From Pseudomonadota bacterium (GTDB taxonomy: Bacteria; Pseudomonadota; Gammaproteobacteria; Burkholderiales; JABEVD01): a DNA stretch of 64,000 nucleotides. Below the pieces are notes generated by a model. The model made no database searches and had not been told where the DNA came from. It saw nothing but the letters and a program-made list of their open reading frames with translations. Both the position numbers and the translations under genes were made by a program. The stretch covers positions 12,908 to 76,907 of the forward strand of contig JAKBJU010000001.1 in assembly GCA_021835845.1 (NCBI GenBank), written 5' to 3'. Numbering within the stretch: the first letter of the stretch is position 1; each line of letters begins with the position of its first letter. This document shows, one piece after another, positions 4,051 through 26,318 of this stretch.

Positions 4051-5586
4051 TCAAGCTGCGATATAGGCACCCTGCCGTATGTCCGCGTCGCCGCGGTCGA
4101 CATGGACGATCTCCCCGGATCTGATTTTCCCCAGGTATTCCTTGAAGTAGCGCACCGCCGACTGCTCGATGAATTCGTGGGCGTATTTCTCCACCGGGTC
4201 GATGCCCGCCGCGCGCAATTCATCCTTCGGGCAACCGCCGATCTTGGCCACGAATACCGCCGCGCAGTCGTTGATGGCGCGGATCACCGTCGGCAGCGCA
4301 TCCTCTTCGCCGTATCCGCCCTGACAGTAGAGATCGACGCGGCGATGCCCCACGAACTTGGTCCCTTCCGTGCCGACCTCGTAAATCTGGAATTCGCTCG
4401 CATGCCCGAAATGCTCGTTGATCCTGCCGCTGCCCTTGGTGGCAACTGCGACCAGTATCTTCACATCGGAATACTCTTTTTCCAGTTCGAGAAGCTCGGC
4501 ATTTCTGGCCGCAACCTTCTCCTGCCTGTCCTGCTCGACGATTTCCTGATAGGCGCGCCTCTTCTCGATGTCGTACTGGACATCCATTTCCATGATCTTT
4601 TCGGTAGTGAATTCGGCGCTTCTGTCTTCCCCGAGCAGCCCTACAGCATCCGCCCTGCACTGCCTGCAATGACGCATCATGTTCATTTCGCCTTCGCAGT
4701 CGTCCTGCAGTGCTTTCAATTCCTGTGCAGTGGGACCGCGCTGTCCGTTGAGACCGAATACCGTGCCATGCTCCGGCGCCGAAATCAGGGGCATGATGTT
4801 GTGCAGGAAAGCGCCCCTCGATTTCACCGCCCGGTTGACTTCGACCAGATGCCTGTCGTTGATCCCGGGGATCATGACCGAATTCACCTTGCACAATATG
4901 CCGGCCGCAGTCAGCATCTCCAGCCCCAGCATCTGGCGCTCGGTGAGTATCCTGGCCGCCTCGATCCCGGTGACACGCTTGTGCTTCCAGAAAATCCAGG
5001 GGTAGATGTACTGCCCCACTTCAGGATCGACCATGTTGATGGTGATGGTCACATGGTCCACATTGAAGGCCTTGATGGTTTCCACATGGTCAGGCAAGGC
5101 AAGCCCGTTGGTGGACAGGCAAAGCTTGATGTCCGGGGCGCTTTTCGAGATCAGCTCGAAAGTCTTGAAAGTCTTTTCGGGATTCGCAAGGGGATCTCCC
5201 GGGCCTGCGATTCCCAGAACGGTCATCTGCGGAATGGTGGACGCGACCGCCAGCACCTTCTTCGATGCCTGCTCCGGAGTCAGCTTCTCGCTTACCACGC
5301 CCGGCCGGCTTTCGTTCGCGCAGTCGTATTTCCTGTTGCAGTAGTTGCACTGGATATTGCAGGCAGGCGCAACCGCCACATGCATGCGCGCATAATGGTG
5401 ATGCGCTTCCTCGCTGTAGCAGGGATGGTTCTTGACCTTTTCCCATACTTCTGGCGCCATGTCCTCGGGAGCCGAGGAAGAGCCGCAGCTCGCCTTTCCG
5501 CCTTCGCTCGAAGTGCCGCATCCCTTGTACTCGGCAATTTGCTGCATCATCTCTTCAAGCGGCTCGGTTTGATTTTGTCCCAGCAT
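4051..5586 (-). CDS. nifB: Nitrogenase cofactor biosynthesis radical-SAM protein NifB
   Basis: 511 aa. [36 protein letters not shown] radical-SAM motif plus a C-terminal NifX-like domain. AAGGAG RBS 6 nt upstream. Confidence 0.95.
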
Positions 5587-5769: not shown

Positions 5770-7392
5770 TCAGAACCGCTTGATCTCGATCTTGTGTTTC
5801 TGCAGAGCGTAGCCCATTTGCCTGGAAGTCAGCTTGAGCAGCCTCGCGGCCTTGGCCTGGACCCAGCCGCATTGCTCCATGGCCCAGACCAGGCGTTCGC
5901 GCTCGGAGGCGAAGGAGGAAGGTTCGGAGTTCTGGAAATCAGGCGGCGCTTCCCTGGATTCCGGCTCTGCCGCCTGCGCTGAAATTATGGGAATCACCGG
6001 GCTGCCCGATTTTCCGTAGCTGCGCAGGGAGAGCGAGAAACACTTGTTCTGCTGGCAGGGAAGATCCACCTCCCGGATCGTATTGCCGCGCGCCATGGTC
6101 ATTGTCCGCTCGACGCAATTTTCGAGCTCCCTCACGTTGCCAGGCCAATAGCAATCCAGCATGACCTTCAGCGCTTCCGGGGTGATCGCGAGCTTCTTCT
6201 GATTCTCCTGGTTGAATTCCTGAAGAAAATGATCGACCAGCAGGGGGATGTCTTCGCGCCGCTCGCGCAAGGGCGGAAGAAAAATGCTCACCACGTTGAT
6301 CCTGTAGTAGAGGTCGGCCCTGAATTCCCCCTTGGATACCGCCTCCTCCAGGTTGCGGTTGGTTGCCGTGACGAGGCGTATGTCCACCTTGATCGGCCTG
6401 TTGCCGCCGACCCGTTCGAATTCCCGCTCCTGGAGCACCCGCAACAGCTTCGTTTGGAACGATGGCGTGATGTCTCCGATCTCGTCGAGAAAGAGGGTGC
6501 CGCCATGGGCAAGCTCGAAGCGCCCCTTGCGCTCCTGGGTCGCCCCCGTGAACGATCCCTTTTCGTGGCCAAAAAGTTCCGATTCGAGCAGGGTCTCGGA
6601 CAGGGCCGCGCAATTGACCTTGATAAAAGGCTTGTCTTTTCTCGAACTGAGGTAATGGATGGCGCGGGCGATCACCTCCTTACCCGTCCCGCTTTCCCCA
6701 CGCAACAGCACCGTGGATTTCCCGGGAGCAGCCTGATGCACTTCGGCAAAAACCGCCTGCATGACCTTGCTCTGCCCGATCACGTTGTCCAGCCTGTATT
6801 TCCCGTGCAGTTCCTTCTGCAGGCGGCTCTTTTCCAGCATGAGTTGCTGCCGCTCACTCGCCACTTTCTGATGCAGCCTGACCGTCTGGCCGATCAGATT
6901 GGCGACCATGACCAGGAAGCGGATATCTCCCTCGAAACTCGGACGCTGCCCATCGAGTTCACGGTCCACGCTGAGGACGCCTATGGTCTCGCGCCCCACC
7001 TTGACCGGCACCCCCATGAAGGAGATGACCTTGTCTTCATTCAGGTTGCGCGAACCGGTGCGGTTGAGGAACATGGGTTCCTTCGCGATGTCAGGAACCA
7101 CGACGGGCATGCCCGATTTCATGATATTCCCGGTCACGCCCTCCCCGATCCGGAAACGACCCCGACTGATTTCCGCGTCAGAAAGTCCGGATGCACCAAC
7201 AACCTGTAACTCCCCCGACTCCTGCACCAGGCTAACCATGCCGCGCTGCATCTTCAGATGCGACGAAAGCACGTTGAGAACTTCCCGCACCGTCTTCCTC
7301 AAATCGAGGGACGAACTCAGTATCTTGCTGATCTCGTAGATAGTTATCAGCTCGACGCTGCCTTCTTTTTCAGATCCTCTCGCCATGCCCAT
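5770..7392 (-). CDS. nifA: nif-specific sigma54 enhancer-binding protein NifA
   Basis: 540 aa. N-terminal GAF domain, AAA+ domain ([14 protein letters not shown]-like [16 protein letters not shown]), C-X11-C-X19-C-X4-C linker motif, C-terminal HTH. Confidence 0.93.
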
Positions 7393-7636: not shown

Positions 7637-7683
7637 TGGAGGCGGGGGTCGGAATCGAACCGGCGTCCACGGCTTTGCAGGCC
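7637..7683 (-). repeat. att direct repeat: displaced 3' 47 nt of tRNA-Cys
   Basis: 47/47 identical by eye to 26245-26291 (CCA end to anticodon stem). Lacks the tRNA 5' half, so it is not a gene. Confidence 0.85.
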
Positions 7684-7731: not shown

Positions 7732-7750
7732 TTGGGTGATTCTTGGGTGA
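7732..7750 (+). promoter_or_regulatory. Two TTGGGTGA direct repeats with 11-bp phasing: putative integrase arm sites
   Basis: TTGGGTGA at 7732-7739 and 7743-7750. The same octamer with the same phasing recurs at the other island end (26154-26172). Confidence 0.5.
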
Positions 7751-7766
7751 ACCAACAGGGGACATT

Positions 7767-8747
7767 ATGGCACAAATAGAGCGGCGCGGTGATTTGCAAT
7801 GGCGGGCCAGAATCAAGAAAAAGGGCTTTCCCGAACAGTCAAAAACCTTCTTCACGAAAAAGGATGCAGAGGACTGGTCCAAGATCATAGAATCCGAAAT
7901 GATCCGAGGAACGTTCATTGCCCGGACGGAATCGGAAAAAGTTACCTTCGGCGATCTAGTAGATCGGTATCTACGAGAAGTTACCCCGTCCAAGAAAAAC
8001 TGGAAGAGCGAAACCGAGATCATGGGCAAGATCAAGGAGAGATTCGGACAGCACGCTCTCGTTGCGATCCAGTCTAAAGAAATTGCCGAATACCGCGATG
8101 AGCTTTTAGAAAAGAGGGCAGCCTCCACGGTCTGTCATTACCTGAATGCAATTTCTGTCGTGATAGATACCGCACTCAAAGAATGGGGCTACGTCCTCCC
8201 AGCAAATCCAGTTCGCAATGTGCGCCGTCCTTCCCAACCAACGGGAAGAGATAGGCGGCTTTCGACTGAAGAGGAAACAGCACTCATTGAAGAATGCAGG
8301 AAGTCCGGCAACGTCTGGCTTGTGCCTGTCGTGGTTCTTGCTACTGAAACGGCGATGCGGCAAGGAGAGATTTTCAAGCTGTCGTGGGAGCATGTGAACC
8401 TGAAAAGGCAAATAGCGCATATCCCGGAAACCAAGAACGGCGAAGCTCGAACAATCCCACTTTCGACTCGCGCTGTCGCGGCGCTGGACGCTCTCCCACG
8501 CTCTATTGATGGCCGGGTTATCCAGGCGCGTCAGGATGCTTTGAGAAAGTGTTTCGAACGGGCCGTGGTCAGGGCTGGTATCAAGGATCTACGATTCCAT
8601 GATCTCAGGCACGAGGCGACATCCAGATTGTTCGAAAAAGGACTAAACCCGATGGAAGCTGCGAGCGTAACCGGACATAAAACGCTTGCCATGCTGAAAC
8701 GCTACACGCATTTGAAGGCTGAGGAACTGGCGAAGAAGCTTGGATAG
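7767..8747 (+). CDS. int: Tyrosine-type site-specific integrase
   Basis: 326 aa from ATG 7767 with AGGGGA upstream. The ORF track begins at TTG 7743. Catalytic-domain pattern ATETAMRQGEI...FHDLRHEATSRL...GHKTLAMLKRYTH (R..HxxR..Y). Confidence 0.9.
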   Translation: MAQIERRGDLQWRARIKKKGFPEQSKTFFTKKDAEDWSKIIESEMIRGTFIARTESEKVTFGDLVDRYLREVTPSKKNWKSETEIMGKIKERFGQHALVAIQSKEIAEYRDELLEKRAASTVCHYLNAISVVIDTALKEWGYVLPANPVRNVRRPSQPTGRDRRLSTEEETALIEECRKSGNVWLVPVVVLATETAMRQGEIFKLSWEHVNLKRQIAHIPETKNGEARTIPLSTRAVAALDALPRSIDGRVIQARQDALRKCFERAVVRAGIKDLRFHDLRHEATSRLFEKGLNPMEAASVTGHKTLAMLKRYTHLKAEELAKKLG

Positions 8748-8820: not shown

Positions 8821-9285
8821 TTGAAAAGAAAGCAGCTAGATCGTACTCTTTTAGATTGGATTAAATCAGAAGGAGGGCGTAACGCAATACCTGAGACTGC
8901 ATTGGATGATCATGTGGTTCTTGGTCGATTTAATGCTGGCATGCTAGCTATCCTAAAATGCGTTGATTTAGAGATTGTTACCTCCGTAGCAGTTTTGGAT
9001 AAAATGCTGTTCGATCATGGTATTAGCATTAATAAATTAGAGCGGTTACATAGCCTGATCTGCTCTCCCATAAAAGTCTATCAATCTGCGACACAATCAA
9101 CTTCTGTTGTAATAATGACAGTTGAACTTCACCGAGGAAAACCTATTCTGCTACCAATATGGTTAAATAAACCGGGGGCTACTGGAAAACCGCCTATGCA
9201 TTGGCTATCAAGTGGCTATACGAAGGATAATCCAAATTGGCAGTCAACTTGGGATTCTAAAGGTCTGTTGCTTTGGCAGAAATAA
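8821..9285 (+). CDS. Hypothetical protein in the AT-rich cargo pocket
   Basis: 154-aa ORF with a TTG start after AAGGGGG. Local GC is much lower than the rest of the island. No motif recognised with confidence. Confidence 0.45.
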   Translation: MKRKQLDRTLLDWIKSEGGRNAIPETALDDHVVLGRFNAGMLAILKCVDLEIVTSVAVLDKMLFDHGISINKLERLHSLICSPIKVYQSATQSTSVVIMTVELHRGKPILLPIWLNKPGATGKPPMHWLSSGYTKDNPNWQSTWDSKGLLLWQK

Positions 9286-18245: not shown

Positions 18246-19019
18246 TTAAGCTCCTTTCTTCTGTGCGAATTTCGAATAAGAGAAAAAGGCGAATCGAGCG
18301 CGATGAGAATCCGTCACCTTGACGTTTTCGCCTTCGAACCGGATGGTTTCGACCCGCGCAAAAGCTCGCTCTACAAGCTTTTCGAGGCCGTCGGGGCAAA
18401 CGTAAGCGACAAAAGCGTAGCGCCCTGCTTTAATCGATTTGAGATGCGCGAGCAGCACAGATTCATACCGCCGGGGGGTCTTGATGGTCCTCTCGATCTC
18501 GATTGCGACTCGGTCGCCCTTCGGGCTTGTGGCGATGAAATCGGGGATTTTTTCCGAGTCCTTGCCTTTCCCTTTCGCTGCCGTTCGCTCCCTGGGCGAT
18601 TCCTGCATTTTCTGCAATCGCTCGGGCACGAATGCGGTCCAGCCTGCGGCTTCGGCCTTGATCCGCATGCGCTGGCCGTCCAGTTTGTGAGCGAGAAATG
18701 CCGGGGACGTGCGCCCGAGTTCGTGGAAAGGCATGTCCCATTTGTCGATGAGCGCGAGGCCATGCGGGGTGATGCCGTAGATTTTCGATTTCCGGCCCGC
18801 GTTCTCTATTTCTTCCGACTTGAGCGCACCGTCGCGCTCCAGGCCGCCGACTGTGGATTGTGCGGCCCGTCGGCTGCATTGCAGCAGCAATGCGGCGATT
18901 TCAACGGTCGAGAAGACTTCGCCAGATGCGAGGAAATCAAGCAGTATGCGGCGTTTCGCTTCTGCGCGAGCCTGCTTTTCAGCGTAAGTCATGGCCGGGA
19001 GTCGTTCTGTTTTTTCCAT
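18246..19019 (-). CDS. wHTH plus PD-(D/E)xK-like protein, replication-relaxation (Replic_Relax)-like
   Basis: 257 aa from ATG 19019 (GGAG 9 nt upstream). The ORF could extend to 19040. N-terminal wHTH (ILLDFLASGEVFSTVEIAALL...ERDGAL), H-containing middle (FLAHKLDGQ), PDFIATSPKGDRVAIEIERT core. Confidence 0.6.
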   Translation of the reverse strand: MEKTERLPAMTYAEKQARAEAKRRILLDFLASGEVFSTVEIAALLLQCSRRAAQSTVGGLERDGALKSEEIENAGRKSKIYGITPHGLALIDKWDMPFHELGRTSPAFLAHKLDGQRMRIKAEAAGWTAFVPERLQKMQESPRERTAAKGKGKDSEKIPDFIATSPKGDRVAIEIERTIKTPRRYESVLLAHLKSIKAGRYAFVAYVCPDGLEKLVERAFARVETIRFEGENVKVTDSHRARFAFFSYSKFAQKKGA

Positions 19020-19091
19020 TTCTTCATCTCCAAAAAACACAATTCAATTTTCCCATGCGTTCGAAAAACCATTGTTTGCCGAGCCGCCTTT

Positions 19092-19212: not shown

Positions 19213-21024
19213 TCAATCGAAGCTGATTGTCTCGGGTTGGTCGAGGTCGAGGCCGTCGGTCTCGACTATGCGCGAAGTCGCGGGCGGCAAGTCGAACGGT
19301 GCTTTCTCGGTGCCCGAATCGAGCGCGACGGACTCGGAAGCGCTCTTCAAGCTCGCCCCTTCAACCTCGCGAATTGCGATTGCTTCTGGCGACTTCGCGA
19401 CTCTCAGCGGTCGAATCGAAACGAATTTCGGAAGTCCGCTTCCATACAGAACCGCTACCGATGCGGGCAGATTCAACAGCATGTTTTCATCAATGAAATA
19501 GCGCTCGGCTTGTCGAATCGACCTGCGAGCATCGACGGTTTCAGAGAGAGCCAGATTCCGCTCAACCGTCCGGCTCTCGTCGTCCACGAGGATCTTCCCG
19601 GACATGCTTGCAAGCCATTCGGCTGTGACCGGGGATTTAACCTGGTAGCAGAGCTTGACGCGGCAATTCTCAACGACAGCATCAACGACAGCATCAGGGT
19701 TGAGATCCTTGGTGCAGTCTTTCAAGTCGCCCAAGCTCTGGTGAGCAAGGATCAGGTGGACACCTTTGTCGCGAGCGGCCCCCAGTCCTTCAAGCGCTGG
19801 GCGGGAAAGGTGGTATTTCACTTCGTCAAGGACAATACAGATTTTGCGAAGTTCTCCGGCCATGCGGTCGCGCCGTTCGGCAAGCTGCAACAAGCGCACA
19901 AGCAAGATGCGCTGCGCGGTCTTCACGATGTCGTTTCGCATCGATCCGACGATGTAGACACATCCGCCGTTTTCGATAACTTCGGCGAGCGATACGCCCC
20001 CAGCGGTCGCGTTGATCGACGGTGTTTCGGCCATTTCGCGCAGCTTGCCGTAGAACTTCTCGGCTTCGCCTACCTGGTCTTTTCGCGCCTCGAAAACCTC
20101 AGCGATGGTTAGATTTTCAGCGGCCATTTGCCGGGCGGTCGCAAGTGCTTCACGACGATCTGCAATGCCGTAGAAGTCGCTGGCGTCGCCTTTCTCGATC
20201 AAGCTGAACCCGGCTTGAAACAACTCGAAAGCTTCATCAGCCGTTGCGCCTTCGAATGGGTTAAACTGCGCCCCGTTCGGGCGGTTGAGGTTGATGTAGT
20301 AATACGGCTTGCCGGTTCGCTGTGCTGCGGCATGCATGACCGATGGAGCCCACTCGTCGTTTTTCGGGTCGCAGAAAAAAACTGCTTCTCCGCGCTCAAG
20401 GAATTGAGACGCCATGACGCCCAGGCTCACGCCTTTACCCGCTCCGGTCGTGCCGACCACCTGAACGTGAGGCGCGGAAGTGCCGCCGCCGAATTCGATG
20501 TAGATAGGTTTTTTCTTCTCGTCCAGGCCGAGAAAAACGCCCTTGCTCTTATCAAGAAATTTCACCGGATCGAACGCGGCGGCGGAATCAGGAAGGTGCT
20601 TTTCGATCTCGCGAACGTCGGTCTTTCTGTTCCGCTCGCGCTCACTCGTAACCGTAGCCTTGCCTTTGAGCTTGTCGATTGCTTGGACGCCATCGCGCAG
20701 AAGAAAGATAGCGCCCGCGATTCCCGCTGCTGCGGAAATAATGAAAATGCCTATATCCAGCCAGCCGGGAAACAAAGTCGGAACGGTCCCGTCATCCCGA
20801 GGATAAAAAGTTACTTTCGAGAGCGTTGGGATAACAAAAAGGATTGCGAGCGCTGCCCATGCTGGCAGCGAAAACAGAGAGAAAAGCCGGGATAAAAAAC
20901 CTTCTTTGTTCTGCGCTTTTCGGTTATGCGAGAGGATTAAAAAGCCGAAACCAAAACCGAAAAAGCGGAGAGCGTGGAATGCCAAAAGCAGGCAGCCGAG
21001 CACGTAGAAATTCAGAACTTGCAT
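19213..21024 (-). CDS. Type IV secretion coupling protein (TraD/TraG/VirD4 family)
   Basis: 603 aa from ATG 21024 (AGGAGG RBS). N-terminal TM helices, Walker A VVGTTGAGKG, Walker B CIVLDEV, AHQSLGDLKD. The upstream part of the 668-aa ORF is rejected. Confidence 0.85.
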   Translation of the reverse strand: MQVLNFYVLGCLLLAFHALRFFGFGFGFLILSHNRKAQNKEGFLSRLFSLFSLPAWAALAILFVIPTLSKVTFYPRDDGTVPTLFPGWLDIGIFIISAAAGIAGAIFLLRDGVQAIDKLKGKATVTSERERNRKTDVREIEKHLPDSAAAFDPVKFLDKSKGVFLGLDEKKKPIYIEFGGGTSAPHVQVVGTTGAGKGVSLGVMASQFLERGEAVFFCDPKNDEWAPSVMHAAAQRTGKPYYYINLNRPNGAQFNPFEGATADEAFELFQAGFSLIEKGDASDFYGIADRREALATARQMAAENLTIAEVFEARKDQVGEAEKFYGKLREMAETPSINATAGGVSLAEVIENGGCVYIVGSMRNDIVKTAQRILLVRLLQLAERRDRMAGELRKICIVLDEVKYHLSRPALEGLGAARDKGVHLILAHQSLGDLKDCTKDLNPDAVVDAVVENCRVKLCYQVKSPVTAEWLASMSGKILVDDESRTVERNLALSETVDARRSIRQAERYFIDENMLLNLPASVAVLYGSGLPKFVSIRPLRVAKSPEAIAIREVEGASLKSASESVALDSGTEKAPFDLPPATSRIVETDGLDLDQPETISFD

Positions 21025-21905
21025 TGCTTCCTCCTGAAAATGAAATTGCTTCTCTAGGATCGCATGGGAAAGAAATACCACTAAATTGAGCGGTAAGCAT
21101 GGGTTAAAGCGCACCTTCGATTCCGTAGATGCGCTCGAAATCGTGTGGCTTGGCTGTGACGGCAAGGCGCAGCCGCGCAGCCCGAAGGGCGAAGGCAAGA
21201 CGGACTCATCGTCGCGCAAGTCGCGGTGATTTTTCGCGACTGAAGGGGGACCGGCGAAGCCGGGGCAAGACGCAGACCGAAGGTCGTCGCGTCGAGCCTC
21301 CGAGGATCAGCGAAGCGGTCCGAGGATCGGGGGGAGCCATGAGTCCCGAAGGGACCGAAGCCAGCCAGCGTCGAGTAAGGACGGCTTCATCGTCCGCACC
21401 GAGACCTGGATGGGCATGGGGGGCGAAGCCCCGGCGACCCGAGCGCGAAGCGCCAAGGGTCCAAGGTGCACTCTCCGAGCCTCGCTTTTTTGCGAGCGCA
21501 GCGAACAAAAAAGAAGAGAAGAGAGTGCTCCGCAGGACCCGCAGCCCTCCGGGGTCTTTGAGCGAAGCGAAAAAGACTCTGGAGGGGCGGGGTCGAGCGG
21601 TGGAAGGACCGGCGAAGCCGGGACTGGAAGCGCTCGACCCCGCCCGTCCAGCGGACGGGTCGGGTCGCCCGCTTTTGACGTGCCCCTGGGACTGCGACAG
21701 CAGGCCAGGAAGAGCCGCCGCGTCCAGCGGCGAAGCGATTCCGGCAGGGGATGCCTTTGACTTTGCTTGTGTTTTTGACTTTCCCAAAGTCAAGCCCGAA
21801 ACACTTAAGCGCATCATGAATATCAGAGTGCGCTAATGGTCGAAGCTGAAATCACACATGAAATGTATCGATTTCGGTGAGACGAAGAAGCCCCGCGAGA
21901 AGCCC

Positions 21906-21953
21906 CCACGAGAAGCCCCATAGTCCCGGCGCTTCTTCCGGGGCTTCTCGTGG
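21906..21953. repeat. 14-bp inverted repeat (CCACGAGAAGCCCC / GGGGCTTCTCGTGG) with a 20-nt spacer
   Basis: Read directly. Preceded by two more direct copies of GA(A/G)AAGCCCC at 21884-21906. Confidence 0.8.
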
Positions 21954-21976
21954 AGCTACTCGACACGAAAAACGCC

Positions 21977-22004
21977 AAAAAGAAAGCCCGGAAAAATCCG
22001 GGCT
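21977..22004 (-). terminator. Rho-independent terminator of the 22032-22223 gene
   Basis: Minus strand reads AGCCCGG-attttt-CCGGGCT followed by TTCTTTTT, 28 nt after the stop. Confidence 0.7.
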
Positions 22005-22031
22005 TAGAGGCGGGGAGAGTGCGGGGAAAAT

Positions 22032-22223
22032 TTAGGCGGGGCGGCTGGGATTTTCGCGAGCGATTTCAGCGAAAGCTGCGAGTAAAACATCGTCGGGGAG
22101 ATGCAGGATTTTTGCTTTTTGAGCGAGAGCGAAAATCGATTCTTTCCGAGCTTCGTCTTTCTGCGCTTGCGCGATTTGCTTTTCGAGATCGTCGCGTTTT
22201 TTCAGAAGAGTTTCGAGCTTCAT
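22032..22223 (-). CDS. Small coiled-coil protein, RSF1010 MobC / Ti TraD-like architecture
   Basis: 63 aa with AAAGGAAAG RBS. KKRDDLEKQIAQAQKDEARKESIFALAQKAKILHLPDDVLLAAFAEI parallels the coiled-coil plus LxAAxxxxL layout of RSF1010 MobC. Weak call. Confidence 0.4.
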   Translation of the reverse strand: MKLETLLKKRDDLEKQIAQAQKDEARKESIFALAQKAKILHLPDDVLLAAFAEIARENPSRPA

Positions 22224-23187: not shown

Positions 23188-24066
23188 TCAGGATGGAAAA
23201 AGGCGCTCTTTTGCGGCGGCCAAAGTCCGTCGAGCATACTTTTCTGCGGACCTCCCTTTTCGAGTCGCTGAAATTGCCAGCAGCCTCACAATTTCTTCGT
23301 CCTCCACCCCTTCTTTCACCTTCAAAATCGTCCATTGGAAGTCCACTTCTGACTGCGTTTTTCCGGGGCGTCTGTTAGATGTCACGGGGGGCAGCGGCTT
23401 GCTGCCGCCGACTGGAACGGCAGATTTTTTCGGTCGCGGATTGTTTGCGGGCGTCGTGACGGCTGCGGGCTTTATCGTCTCAACATCGAGCGGCTTTCCC
23501 TTTGGCCGCTTCAAAACGTTCACCCAACAGCCGCCCCGCTTGTGATTTTTGAATCCGGGGATTCGTCCTGGCTGAATTCCGCTCGTCGCGGCTCGATCTG
23601 CGCCGACTTTCTGTGCGAGAATCGCTTGCAGCCGCTGCCGCTCGCGTCCGTCGATGCGTTGATTTGTTATGAGCCAGATCTGGCAATTGTTCGGCGAAGT
23701 CTCGATAACAAAGCATCGATTGAAGTCAGCGATTTCAAAGGCCGTCTTCCTTGGCACGTCGTCAAGAAAAAGGTATCTGTACGATGCGATGCTGTCCGCG
23801 CTCGAAGCTGCGGGTCGAAAATAGACGTTCCCGCCGAGCTTGTTTTCTTTGCGAAGGTCGGCCAGCAAATCCTCAACGTATTTCATTCCGTACCGTTCGC
23901 GGGTACGCGCCATTGTCTGCGGCGGGTCTGTGAGTCTGCCACCATCAAACACGCGCCATGCTGACTTGTCCGACGGGTCGCGGGAAGAGAAAAGATTGAA
24001 TGCCTGGCAACCGACTTCTTCAGCAAGTTCGATCATGAATCTCATTTGAATTTCTTCGATGCTCAT
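23188..24066 (-). CDS. repB: RepB'-type DNA primase (RSF1010 RepB' family)
   Basis: 292 aa. Motif-by-motif match to RSF1010 RepB': GGNVYFRPA / GNDVYIRPA, YLFLDDV / LVLVDDL, VIETSPNNCQIW / VVETSPKNYQAW, GRIPGFKNHK / GRLAGFTNRK, C-terminal ...RKGRSAEKY / ...SRGRSAEEI. Confidence 0.85.
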   Translation of the reverse strand: MSIEEIQMRFMIELAEEVGCQAFNLFSSRDPSDKSAWRVFDGGRLTDPPQTMARTRERYGMKYVEDLLADLRKENKLGGNVYFRPAASSADSIASYRYLFLDDVPRKTAFEIADFNRCFVIETSPNNCQIWLITNQRIDGRERQRLQAILAQKVGADRAATSGIQPGRIPGFKNHKRGGCWVNVLKRPKGKPLDVETIKPAAVTTPANNPRPKKSAVPVGGSKPLPPVTSNRRPGKTQSEVDFQWTILKVKEGVEDEEIVRLLAISATRKGRSAEKYARRTLAAAKERLFPS

Positions 24067-24097
24067 TCCCTGCACTCCAAAAAACCCTACCCCCTAT

Positions 24098-26244: not shown

Positions 26245-26318
26245 TGGAGGCGGGGGTCGGAATCGAACCGGCGTCCACGGCTTTGCAGGCCGCTGCATAA
26301 CCACTCTGCCACCCCGCC
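26245..26318 (-). tRNA. tRNA-Cys (GCA)
   Basis: 74 nt: GGCGGGGTGGCAGAGTGGTTATGCAGCGGCCTGCAAAGCCGTGGACGCCGGTTCGATTCCGACCCCCGCCTCCA. Anticodon loop CUGCAAA, T-loop GGTTCGATTCC, CCA end. Confidence 0.93.

Follow-up and report, generated by a model that had tools for sequence, protein, structure and literature searches.

A hairpin-rich non-coding block upstream of the coupling-protein gene as the probable transfer origin of a MOB_C-type integrative and conjugative element

The stretch of DNA analysed here (the window) comprises 64,000 nt of contig JAKBJU010000001.1 (positions 12,908 to 76,907; assembly GCA_021835845.1) from a Pseudomonadota bacterium of the Burkholderiales lineage JABEVD01. It carries an integrative conjugative element (ICE) in which an intergenic block of 1007 nt (21025-22031 of the window) lies between a gene for a 63-aa protein, p63, and the gene for a type IV coupling protein (T4CP). 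This block is probably the origin-of-transfer (oriT) region of an 18.7-kb MOB_C-type ICE, acting in cis in DNA processing, and judging from its motifs it is most likely a diverged member of the oriT type of CloDF13 and ICEKp1, not a new kind of system. An earlier reading made from the letters of the window (the sequence-only reading) had listed an oriT among several candidate functions of the block, and this candidate is supported by gene context, conserved synteny and a motif architecture common to the CloDF13/ICEKp1 class.

The block lies directly upstream of the T4CP gene, which is followed by the gene for a MobC-family relaxase, and these two genes are homologous to mobB and mobC of CloDF13. 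The T4CP (603 aa, starting at ATG 21024 and identical to database protein P0001) has 28.5% identity to the mobB region of CloDF13 (E 2e-22), and the MobC of the window has 27% identity to an E. coli ICE MobC (E 8e-23). OriTs of MOB_C systems are generally found upstream of the coupling-protein gene (10.1101/2024.01.30.577996; 10.64898/2026.01.13.699239). For instance, CloDF13, HPI-ECOR31 and pMET1 have an oriT-mobB-mobC layout, in which the putative oriT is upstream of mobB and the nic motifs are in the inverted repeat IR2 (PMC2262945). Similarly, a 1760-bp virB11-mobB fragment of ICEKp1 mobilises pACYC184 (PMC6761156), and a further ICEKp1 report (PMC4891358, citing Lin 2008) describes an oriT of ~250 bp, with two inverted repeats, a single direct repeat as well as two nic motifs, that is sufficient in cis and lies inside a conserved region of 300-500 bp. 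Like an oriT of this class, the block of the window is non-coding and conserved at the nucleotide level, and contains a large inverted repeat, short repeated boxes and, in collinear order, a core hairpin followed at 93 nt by a GGCYCCCCC box.

Conservation was assessed among 73 loci encoding T4CP relatives, and every relative has a non-coding block of 0.7-1.0 kb at the same place. Gallionella, Sideroxydans and Hydrogenophilales-type loci share one arrangement, with a small p63 homologue first, ~700 nt of non-coding DNA next and the T4CP gene last. In the Enterobacterial loci (the ICEKp1 / HPI-ECOR31 / pMET1 / pCRY group), the order is virB operon, gap, mobB, mobC and ardC. A covariance model of 175 positions, R1, built here from nine Gallionella-type loci, finds the structured module in 53 loci, ~40 of which are Enterobacterial ICEs of the ICEKp1/HPI type (E 1e-9 to 1e-16). 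In the R1 alignment, 94.5% of cells are paired, compared with 71% in shuffles, and 42 of the 47 pairs have double-sided changes. Slid controls score 0.05, as opposed to 0.43 for the alignment. The two best local hairpins (helices 5 and 6) are 99% paired over 57 distinct sequences, with no one-sided (G.T) intermediates. The sequence-only reading was to be given up if related elements lacked all conservation or covariation of the region; what was found is the opposite, a conserved block with covarying stems.

Strong covariation and strong folding z-scores would also be expected if the block were a large structured RNA, either a 5' leader controlling expression of the T4CP operon or an independent non-coding RNA. 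Moreover, the block is situated between a terminator and the T4CP start, so that part of it must be transcribed, and the module has a constant orientation relative to the T4CP gene across the window's own subfamily, Gallionella-type loci and CloDF13, lying on the mobB-sense strand. However, helices with at least 20 compensatory changes show no G.U intermediates, which is unusual for RNA, and because the compensatory changes are Watson-Crick only, the stem pattern fits DNA hairpins, or cruciforms paired on both strands, and not RNA. Mismatches outside three doubtful pairs number 13 for GT and 22 for AC; with almost none of either kind, the outcome is DNA-like and favours neither strand as the folding one. 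In ~40 Enterobacterial loci, the orientation of the module is reversed with respect to the T4CP gene and all neighbouring genes, and it lies on the strand opposite to mobB and the virB genes (L019-L073; 9042-9251 in L074). Neither the window nor ten related loci match an Rfam family, the search of the window at gathering and permissive thresholds having returned only chance miRNA-like matches, and a consensus scan of the block found no promoter-like site. Finally, the corresponding interval of ICEKp1 acts in cis as an oriT (PMC6761156, PMC4891358). The structured RNA put forward in the sequence-only reading is thus disfavoured by its Watson-Crick-only stems, the inversion of the module in Enterobacterial ICEs and the lack of an Rfam match, and we consider it distinctly unlikely.

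The window's own subfamily comprises L075-L079, L146 and L200-L202, with T4CPs 68-72% identical, and a subfamily profile built without the window matches 21243-21605 (E 1.6e-15). With the Gallionella-type and Enterobacterial loci it has in common the synteny p63, block, T4CP, MobC and a fixed order of motifs. First come A(A/C)GTCAAA (AAAGTCAA) boxes and a long inverted repeat with GGGGT(T/C)G (the G4T motif) in its arms; these are followed by a GGGGC-NNN-GCCCC hairpin, several short GC-rich hairpins in a chain and a GGCYCCCCC (GGCTCCCCCC) box. The distance from the core hairpin to the last of these is 69-78 nt in all three groups of relatives and 93 nt in the window. R1 matches 9042-9251 in the E. 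coli locus L074, a stretch that adjoins and in part takes in the largest inverted repeat there (9231-9252/9308-9329, arms TAAAGGGGTTGGTCGCGC); we take this repeat to be the IR2 of HPI-ECOR31/pMET1. By position, the perfect 15-bp stem of the window is the predicted counterpart of this large G4T-containing repeat and is a candidate nic region. Its arms are wholly different between subfamily members, with pairing kept, and between it and the core hairpin the window has ~110 extra nt (21468-21577).

The blocks of the relatives also have a strand signature, since the Gallionella-type and Enterobacterial modules each carry 3-8 hairpins with TGGG/TGGAC loops on one strand and 0-1 on the other. Such hairpins, confined to one strand, are common to CloDF13, the E. 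coli ICE, the Gallionella type and the window's subfamily. In the window, eight hairpins with TTC loops lie on the same strand as its TGGAC hairpin, and these triloops (GAA on the complementary strand) are probably what this lineage has in place of the TGGG/TGGAC loops of the family. L200 shares the bias in the motif, with 13 copies of CTTCG and two of CGAAG, yet has only two TTC hairpins with a stem of at least 4 bp, and in the remaining members of the subfamily there are only one or two TTC hairpins. Therefore, although the sequence-only reading was right that the GAA mini-hairpins on which it laid stress are real, they are a lineage-specific feature of the most GC-rich members and not the conserved core of the family.

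Several observations weigh against placing the window in this oriT class. R1 scores only 8.6 bits on the window (E 0.04 in 1.5 kb; 21328-21433, minus strand), which is not significant, and nhmmer profiles fail to connect the window's subfamily with the Gallionella/Enterobacterial group. The link between the two rests on synteny, collinear short motifs and TGGAC-loop hairpins, and of the last the window has a single example (21714-21732), as opposed to 3-8 hairpins with T(G/A/T)GG/TGGAC loops in the other groups. Additionally, at 1 kb the block is several times longer than the ~250 bp reported as sufficient in ICEKp1, and much of it may serve other purposes, such as promoter activity and regulation or priming. 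Because R1 does not recognise the window, its group is described here as a diverged subfamily. Direct searches reach less far: blastn of the block against plasmids gave no match, and single-sequence nhmmer and blastn searches of related loci matched only the 17-nt core hairpin, the match that led to the family. A metagenome scan with the pattern TCGGTGC(N)GGACGAT-N6-GTCC gave one true relative (L146) among the loci inspected, the pattern being common in GC-rich coding DNA.

Comparison with known transfer origins shows both likenesses and differences. CloDF13 has the same succession of non-coding block, T4CP-like MobB and MobC relaxase, with homologous proteins, and its ~800 nt upstream of mobB contain six C:G-closed TGGG/TGGAC-loop hairpins on the mobB-sense strand and none on the other. 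In contrast, the window has one hairpin of this type and eight TTC/GAA triloops; no similarity between CloDF13 and the window was detected by blastn or covariance model, and CloDF13 is a mobilisable plasmid, whereas the element of the window is an ICE with its own type IV secretion system (T4SS). Against R1, CloDF13 itself scores weakly (10-12 bits), in a match that pointed to GCTGGGGC-loop hairpins. CloDF13, the MOB_C prototype, is typed as 'non-mobilizable' by PLSDB/MOB-suite (L204, NC_002119), with mobB and mobC partly annotated, and automated plasmid typing may overlook the MOB_C class.

In the group of ICEKp1, HPI-ECOR31 (ICEEc1), pMET1 and pCRY, the non-coding interval before mobB acts as the oriT (PMC6761156, PMC4891358, PMC2262945). 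A large inverted repeat with GGGGTTG, a repeated box, a GGGGC-NNN-GCCCC hairpin and a GGCTCCCCCC box follow each other there in the same order as in the window. The oriT module of this group is recognised by R1, a model built from beta-proteobacterial relatives, whereas the block of the window is not. The whole module is inverted relative to mobB in the Enterobacterial elements, and the spacer of the inverted repeat is 55 nt long, versus 31 nt in the window. A more distant parallel is oriT2 of the Enterococcus plasmid pAD1, where a large inverted repeat is combined with short direct repeats that the MOB_C relaxase TraX binds 70-120 bp away from nic (PMC12857230). The AAAGTCAA boxes of the window lie ~110-190 nt from its long inverted repeat, but the two regions have no sequence relation, and binding of MobC to the boxes of the window is suggested by this analogy.

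Open reading frames of 203 aa (minus strand) and 235 aa (plus strand) overlap the block, and frames of 200-235 aa occur at the same place in several relatives; one gene caller even placed an antisense 226-aa gene in L200. The block could thus be imagined to encode a protein. However, neither frame has a Pfam match, both translations are rich in Ser, Arg, Ala and Pro, and sense and antisense translations of the block match each other, which is a palindrome artefact. Near-identical related loci have their 200-230-aa frames in different reading frames, and in the window's subfamily long open frames are present only in the most GC-rich members and are broken in L202, L075 and L076. Among Gallionella-type relatives, to which the indel and codon-position test was applied (the window's own subfamily being judged by its broken frames), the blocks of close relatives differ by 4-7 indels, each of 1 nt, and the adjacent T4CP gene has none. 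Substitutions are spread evenly over codon positions in the block (22/26/24), as opposed to 49/23/196 in the T4CP gene, and identity between close relatives is 85-93% in the block versus 80-82% in the T4CP gene (L004/L013/L014; L006/L008/L010). Gene callers annotate nothing in the gap in six of the seven distinct related contigs. The coding explanation is therefore hardly credible and is refuted as far as sequence can tell: no coding frame conserved in homologues emerged, and the earlier description of about 1 kb of intergenic DNA devoid of a real gene, with the two frames as mere shadows, holds for 21025-22031.

The structures of the block itself were largely described correctly by the sequence-only reading. 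The plus strand has eight hairpins with a GAA triloop and a stem of 4 bp or more, in agreement with the eight or more it had noted, and the minus strand has none, whereas 500 dinucleotide shuffles gave a mean of 0.17 and a maximum of 3. The block has 14 copies of CGAAG and one of CTTCG, and 7 of the 24 copies of GCGAAGC in the window are inside it. Perfect hairpins overall are only modestly raised (13 vs 6.8 +/- 2.8). Folding of each strand as single-stranded DNA, which had been suggested as a check, gave z-scores of -7.7 (plus) and -6.6 (minus) over 21130-21800, far better than shuffles in both cases. The 15-bp stem pairing 21585-21599 with 21631-21645 is perfect, as claimed, and the mini-hairpin in its loop reads CCGGCGAAGCCGG. 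The GTCTTT...AAAGAC, CCCGTCC-agc-GGACGGG and CTCGC-T6-GCGAG hairpins were all found in their places (Table 1), and the duplicated 16-mer proved to be a 17-mer, GGACCGGCGAAGCCGGG, with just these two copies (21248 and 21606) in the whole window. Two features were real but misplaced: the TTGACTTT-ccc-AAAGTCAA element lies at 21775-21793 instead of 21779-21797, with the further box that had been seen before it at 21757-21764, and the strong terminator is on the minus strand at 22005-21984 instead of 21977-22004. Owing to a 3-nt overlap, the CCCGTCC hairpin and the long inverted repeat are mutually exclusive, and the same overlap occurs in L075 and L076.

Three of the five AAAGTCAA copies in the window fall within 21757-21793, with 1.46 expected per 64 kb. 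These boxes recur in L076, L015, L001, L006 and L074, sometimes as 12-bp tandem arrays, and by analogy they are a candidate protein-binding site. In tandem arrays with 12-nt spacing, the box AAGTCAAA is found in three copies in L076 (741-776) and in several copies in L015 (4674-4700 and 5195-5220); these arrays resemble iterons and are positioned on either side of the hairpin module.

Table 1. Features in and around the non-coding block (window coordinates).
Feature	Position	Strand	Remarks
MobC-family relaxase gene (MOB_C, PD-(D/E)XK-type)	18246-19040	-	NCBIfam NF041423, E 8.7e-53
Coupling-protein gene (T4CP, MobB-like)	19213-21024	-	T4SS-DNA_transf, TraG-D_C, TrwB_AAD_bind
T4CP ribosome-binding site AGGAGG (21031-21036) and ATG 21024	21022-21036	-	7 nt upstream of start
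GAA-triloop mini-hairpin array (21180-21190, 21251-21263, 21275-21285, 21343-21355)	21180-21355	+	two then followed by GGCAAGACG
GGCTCCCCCCG box	21329-21339	-	93 nt downstream of core hairpin
Most conserved block of subfamily, GGTCTCGGTGC(G)GGACGATGAAGCCGTCC(C)TTACTCGACGC	21368-21409	-	hairpin 21379-21395; stem covaries in L202 and L079
Core hairpin GGGGC-GAA-GCCCC (21420-21432), then GCGCGAAGCGC (21443-21453)	21420-21453		family-wide; GGGGC-TTC-GCCCC on T4CP-sense strand
Hairpin GCACTCTC...GAGAGTGC around CTCGC-T6-GCGAG (21481-21496)	21468-21528		window-specific insertion relative to subfamily
Hairpin GTCTTT...AAAGAC around GCGAAGC	21554-21577		
Long inverted repeat, perfect 15-bp arms GGGCGGGGTCGAGCG / CGCTCGACCCCGCCC	21585-21645		31-nt spacer holding mini-hairpin 21609-21621
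Hairpin CCCGTCC-agc-GGACGGG	21643-21659		3-nt overlap with long inverted repeat
Fourth box, variant ACGTCAAAA	21673-21685	-	position just 5' of long inverted repeat conserved
Hairpin cgccgc-TGGAC-gcggcg	21714-21732	-	window's only hairpin with family signature loop
Three AAAGTCAA boxes	21757-21793		21757-21764 and 21775-21782 direct on minus strand; 21786-21793 inverted
Repeat cluster	21886-21960		perfect 14-bp inverted repeat 21906-21919 with 21940-21953; tandem 13-mer copy 21891-21903
Intrinsic terminator of upstream operon (p63 and others), AAGCCCGG-ATTTTT-CCGGGCTT then T-run	21984-22005	-	
p63 gene, small helical protein	22032-22223	-	directly upstream of block

The restriction of all eight GAA hairpins to a single strand raises the question of whether the block is mainly a single-strand initiation (ssi) site or a vegetative origin, the hairpins of the plus strand being sites at which a RepB'-like primase primes the complementary strand on the transferred or displaced strand, as at ssiA and ssiB of RSF1010; a leading-strand single-stranded DNA signal and an origin were also among the candidates of the sequence-only reading. 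A gene in the operon just upstream of the block (23188-24075, minus strand) has a product that combines a RepB'-type primase catalytic domain with a ribbon-helix-helix motif at its C-terminus, the ssiA hairpin recognised by RepB' is tipped by CCGAAGG (PMC8567376, PMC13037366), a tip sequence confirmed here in IncQ plasmids, and d(GCGAAGC) forms an exceptionally stable single-stranded hairpin that recurs at origins (PMC13037366). Furthermore, the AAAGTCAA boxes are iteron-like, and the plus strand would be the transferred one if, as in F-like systems, the T4CP genes were the last to enter. The likeness to RSF1010 thus lies in GAA-tipped GC hairpins on one strand beside a RepB'-type primase gene (PMC8567376; PMC13037366). 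However, the stems of the window measure 4-5 bp and that of ssiA 9 bp or more, the flanks are not shared, no common 5' tail or GTG start context was seen and there is no inverted pair of sites. An ssi site of the RSF1010 type (~40 nt, with a long GAA-tipped hairpin, a 5' tail and a 3' GTG start) was accordingly not recognised in the window. Nor do the hairpins track the primase gene. RepB-like primase homologues occur in L001 and L202, and L202 has a single GAA/TTC hairpin; L200 has 13 CTTCG motifs (two with a stem of at least 4 bp) and no RepB match in the available DNA; L075 carries a D5-type primase instead; and the block is retained, with no RepB homologue close by, in Gallionella-type and Enterobacterial relatives. 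Priming as the main role is distinctly unlikely, and is regarded as a minor rival or as an added function.

The abundance of short palindromes could alternatively mean that the block is a functionless spacer padded by REP-like palindromic repeats of the host. GCGAAGC/GCTTCGC is over-represented an estimated ~3-fold across the whole window, and many TTC hairpins occur only in the window and L200, as such padding might produce. It would not account for the confinement of the 17-mer repeat to the block, for a backbone that is conserved across distant hosts, and more so than the neighbouring gene, or for the strict one-strand orientation of the eight hairpins, which is unexpected for random insertions. 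An idle spacer is hence very unlikely.

If the block is an oriT region, a transfer cycle can be proposed. MobC, perhaps with the MobB-type T4CP and p63, would assemble on the repeated boxes, and one strand would be cut in or next to the long inverted repeat, unwound and fed to the T4CP. Relaxation of CloDF13 reportedly needs both MobC and the MobB-type T4CP. The hairpins would extrude only in single-stranded or supercoiled DNA and would serve as structural recognition marks for initiation, termination and rejoining. MOB_C relaxases have not been observed to remain covalently attached to the strand that they nick, CloDF13 is left with a free 5' end, and reviewers have found it difficult to picture transfer that lacks a pilot protein (PMC6736028, PMC12857230). 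A rather doubtful but specific idea is that the one-strand hairpin array, long and strongly conserved in these oriT regions, is itself a DNA-borne signal, folded on the displaced strand and read by the MobB-type T4CP, and so takes over the recruiting role of a covalently attached relaxase. The GAA mini-hairpins of the window would then be a form of this signal that resists nucleases, and might also prime.

Homologues of p63 (63-84 aa, helical, without family assignment) are encoded in L001 (2837-3004), L004, L006, L008, L010, L013, L014, L016, L201 and L202, and a homologue always adjoins the non-coding block on its upstream side, whatever the remaining gene order; p63 is thus a possible relaxosome accessory factor. 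Since the upstream operon ends at the terminator, the T4CP-MobC-T4SS operon must have its promoter within the block, although no promoter-like site was picked up by the consensus scan mentioned above. Just downstream of the p63 terminator, in the repeat cluster at 21886-21960, the arm CCACGAGAAGCCCC can pair with either of two tandem GGGGCTTCTCG(T/C)GG copies, an arrangement that looks like an alternative-pairing switch; the subfamily alignment showed no conservation of this cluster in relatives.

Downstream of the block, the minus strand encodes the T4CP, MobC, TrbL/VirB6 and other transfer proteins, and ArdC. The element is flanked by a direct repeat of 47 nt (7637-7683 and 26245-26291) that copies the 3' half of tRNA-Cys, and a tyrosine integrase gene (7743-8747) is present at its left end. 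Because these repeats bound the element and the integrase lies at its left end, the block is assigned on sequence grounds to an ICE of ~18.7 kb inserted in tRNA-Cys. The left flank holds genes for NifB (4051-5586) and a NifA-like protein (5770-7392), and the right flank tRNA-Gly and UvrC. Beside the integrase gene, in the low-GC part of the ICE (7-10 kb, GC 0.47-0.52), a protein with a MuF C-terminal domain is encoded at 8821-9285 (plus strand).

Overall, the analysis locates a probable transfer origin for a small, previously undescribed ICE family with a wide distribution among Gallionella, Sideroxydans, Thiothrix and related environmental bacteria. It also shows that origins of the CloDF13/ICEKp1 class exceed the usual ~250 bp in size and have more structure, with a conserved, covarying hairpin module of 450-700 nt; what is modestly new is how large and conserved these origins are, their one-strand hairpin signature and the GAA-loop variant of the window. 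One-strand TGGG/TGGAC-loop hairpins, a GGGGC-NNN-GCCCC hairpin and a GGCYCCCCC box together provide a signature by which such origins, and oriT-only islands dependent on them, can be searched for in genomes, and they offer concrete DNA elements for probing how MOB_C systems pass DNA to the secretion machine.

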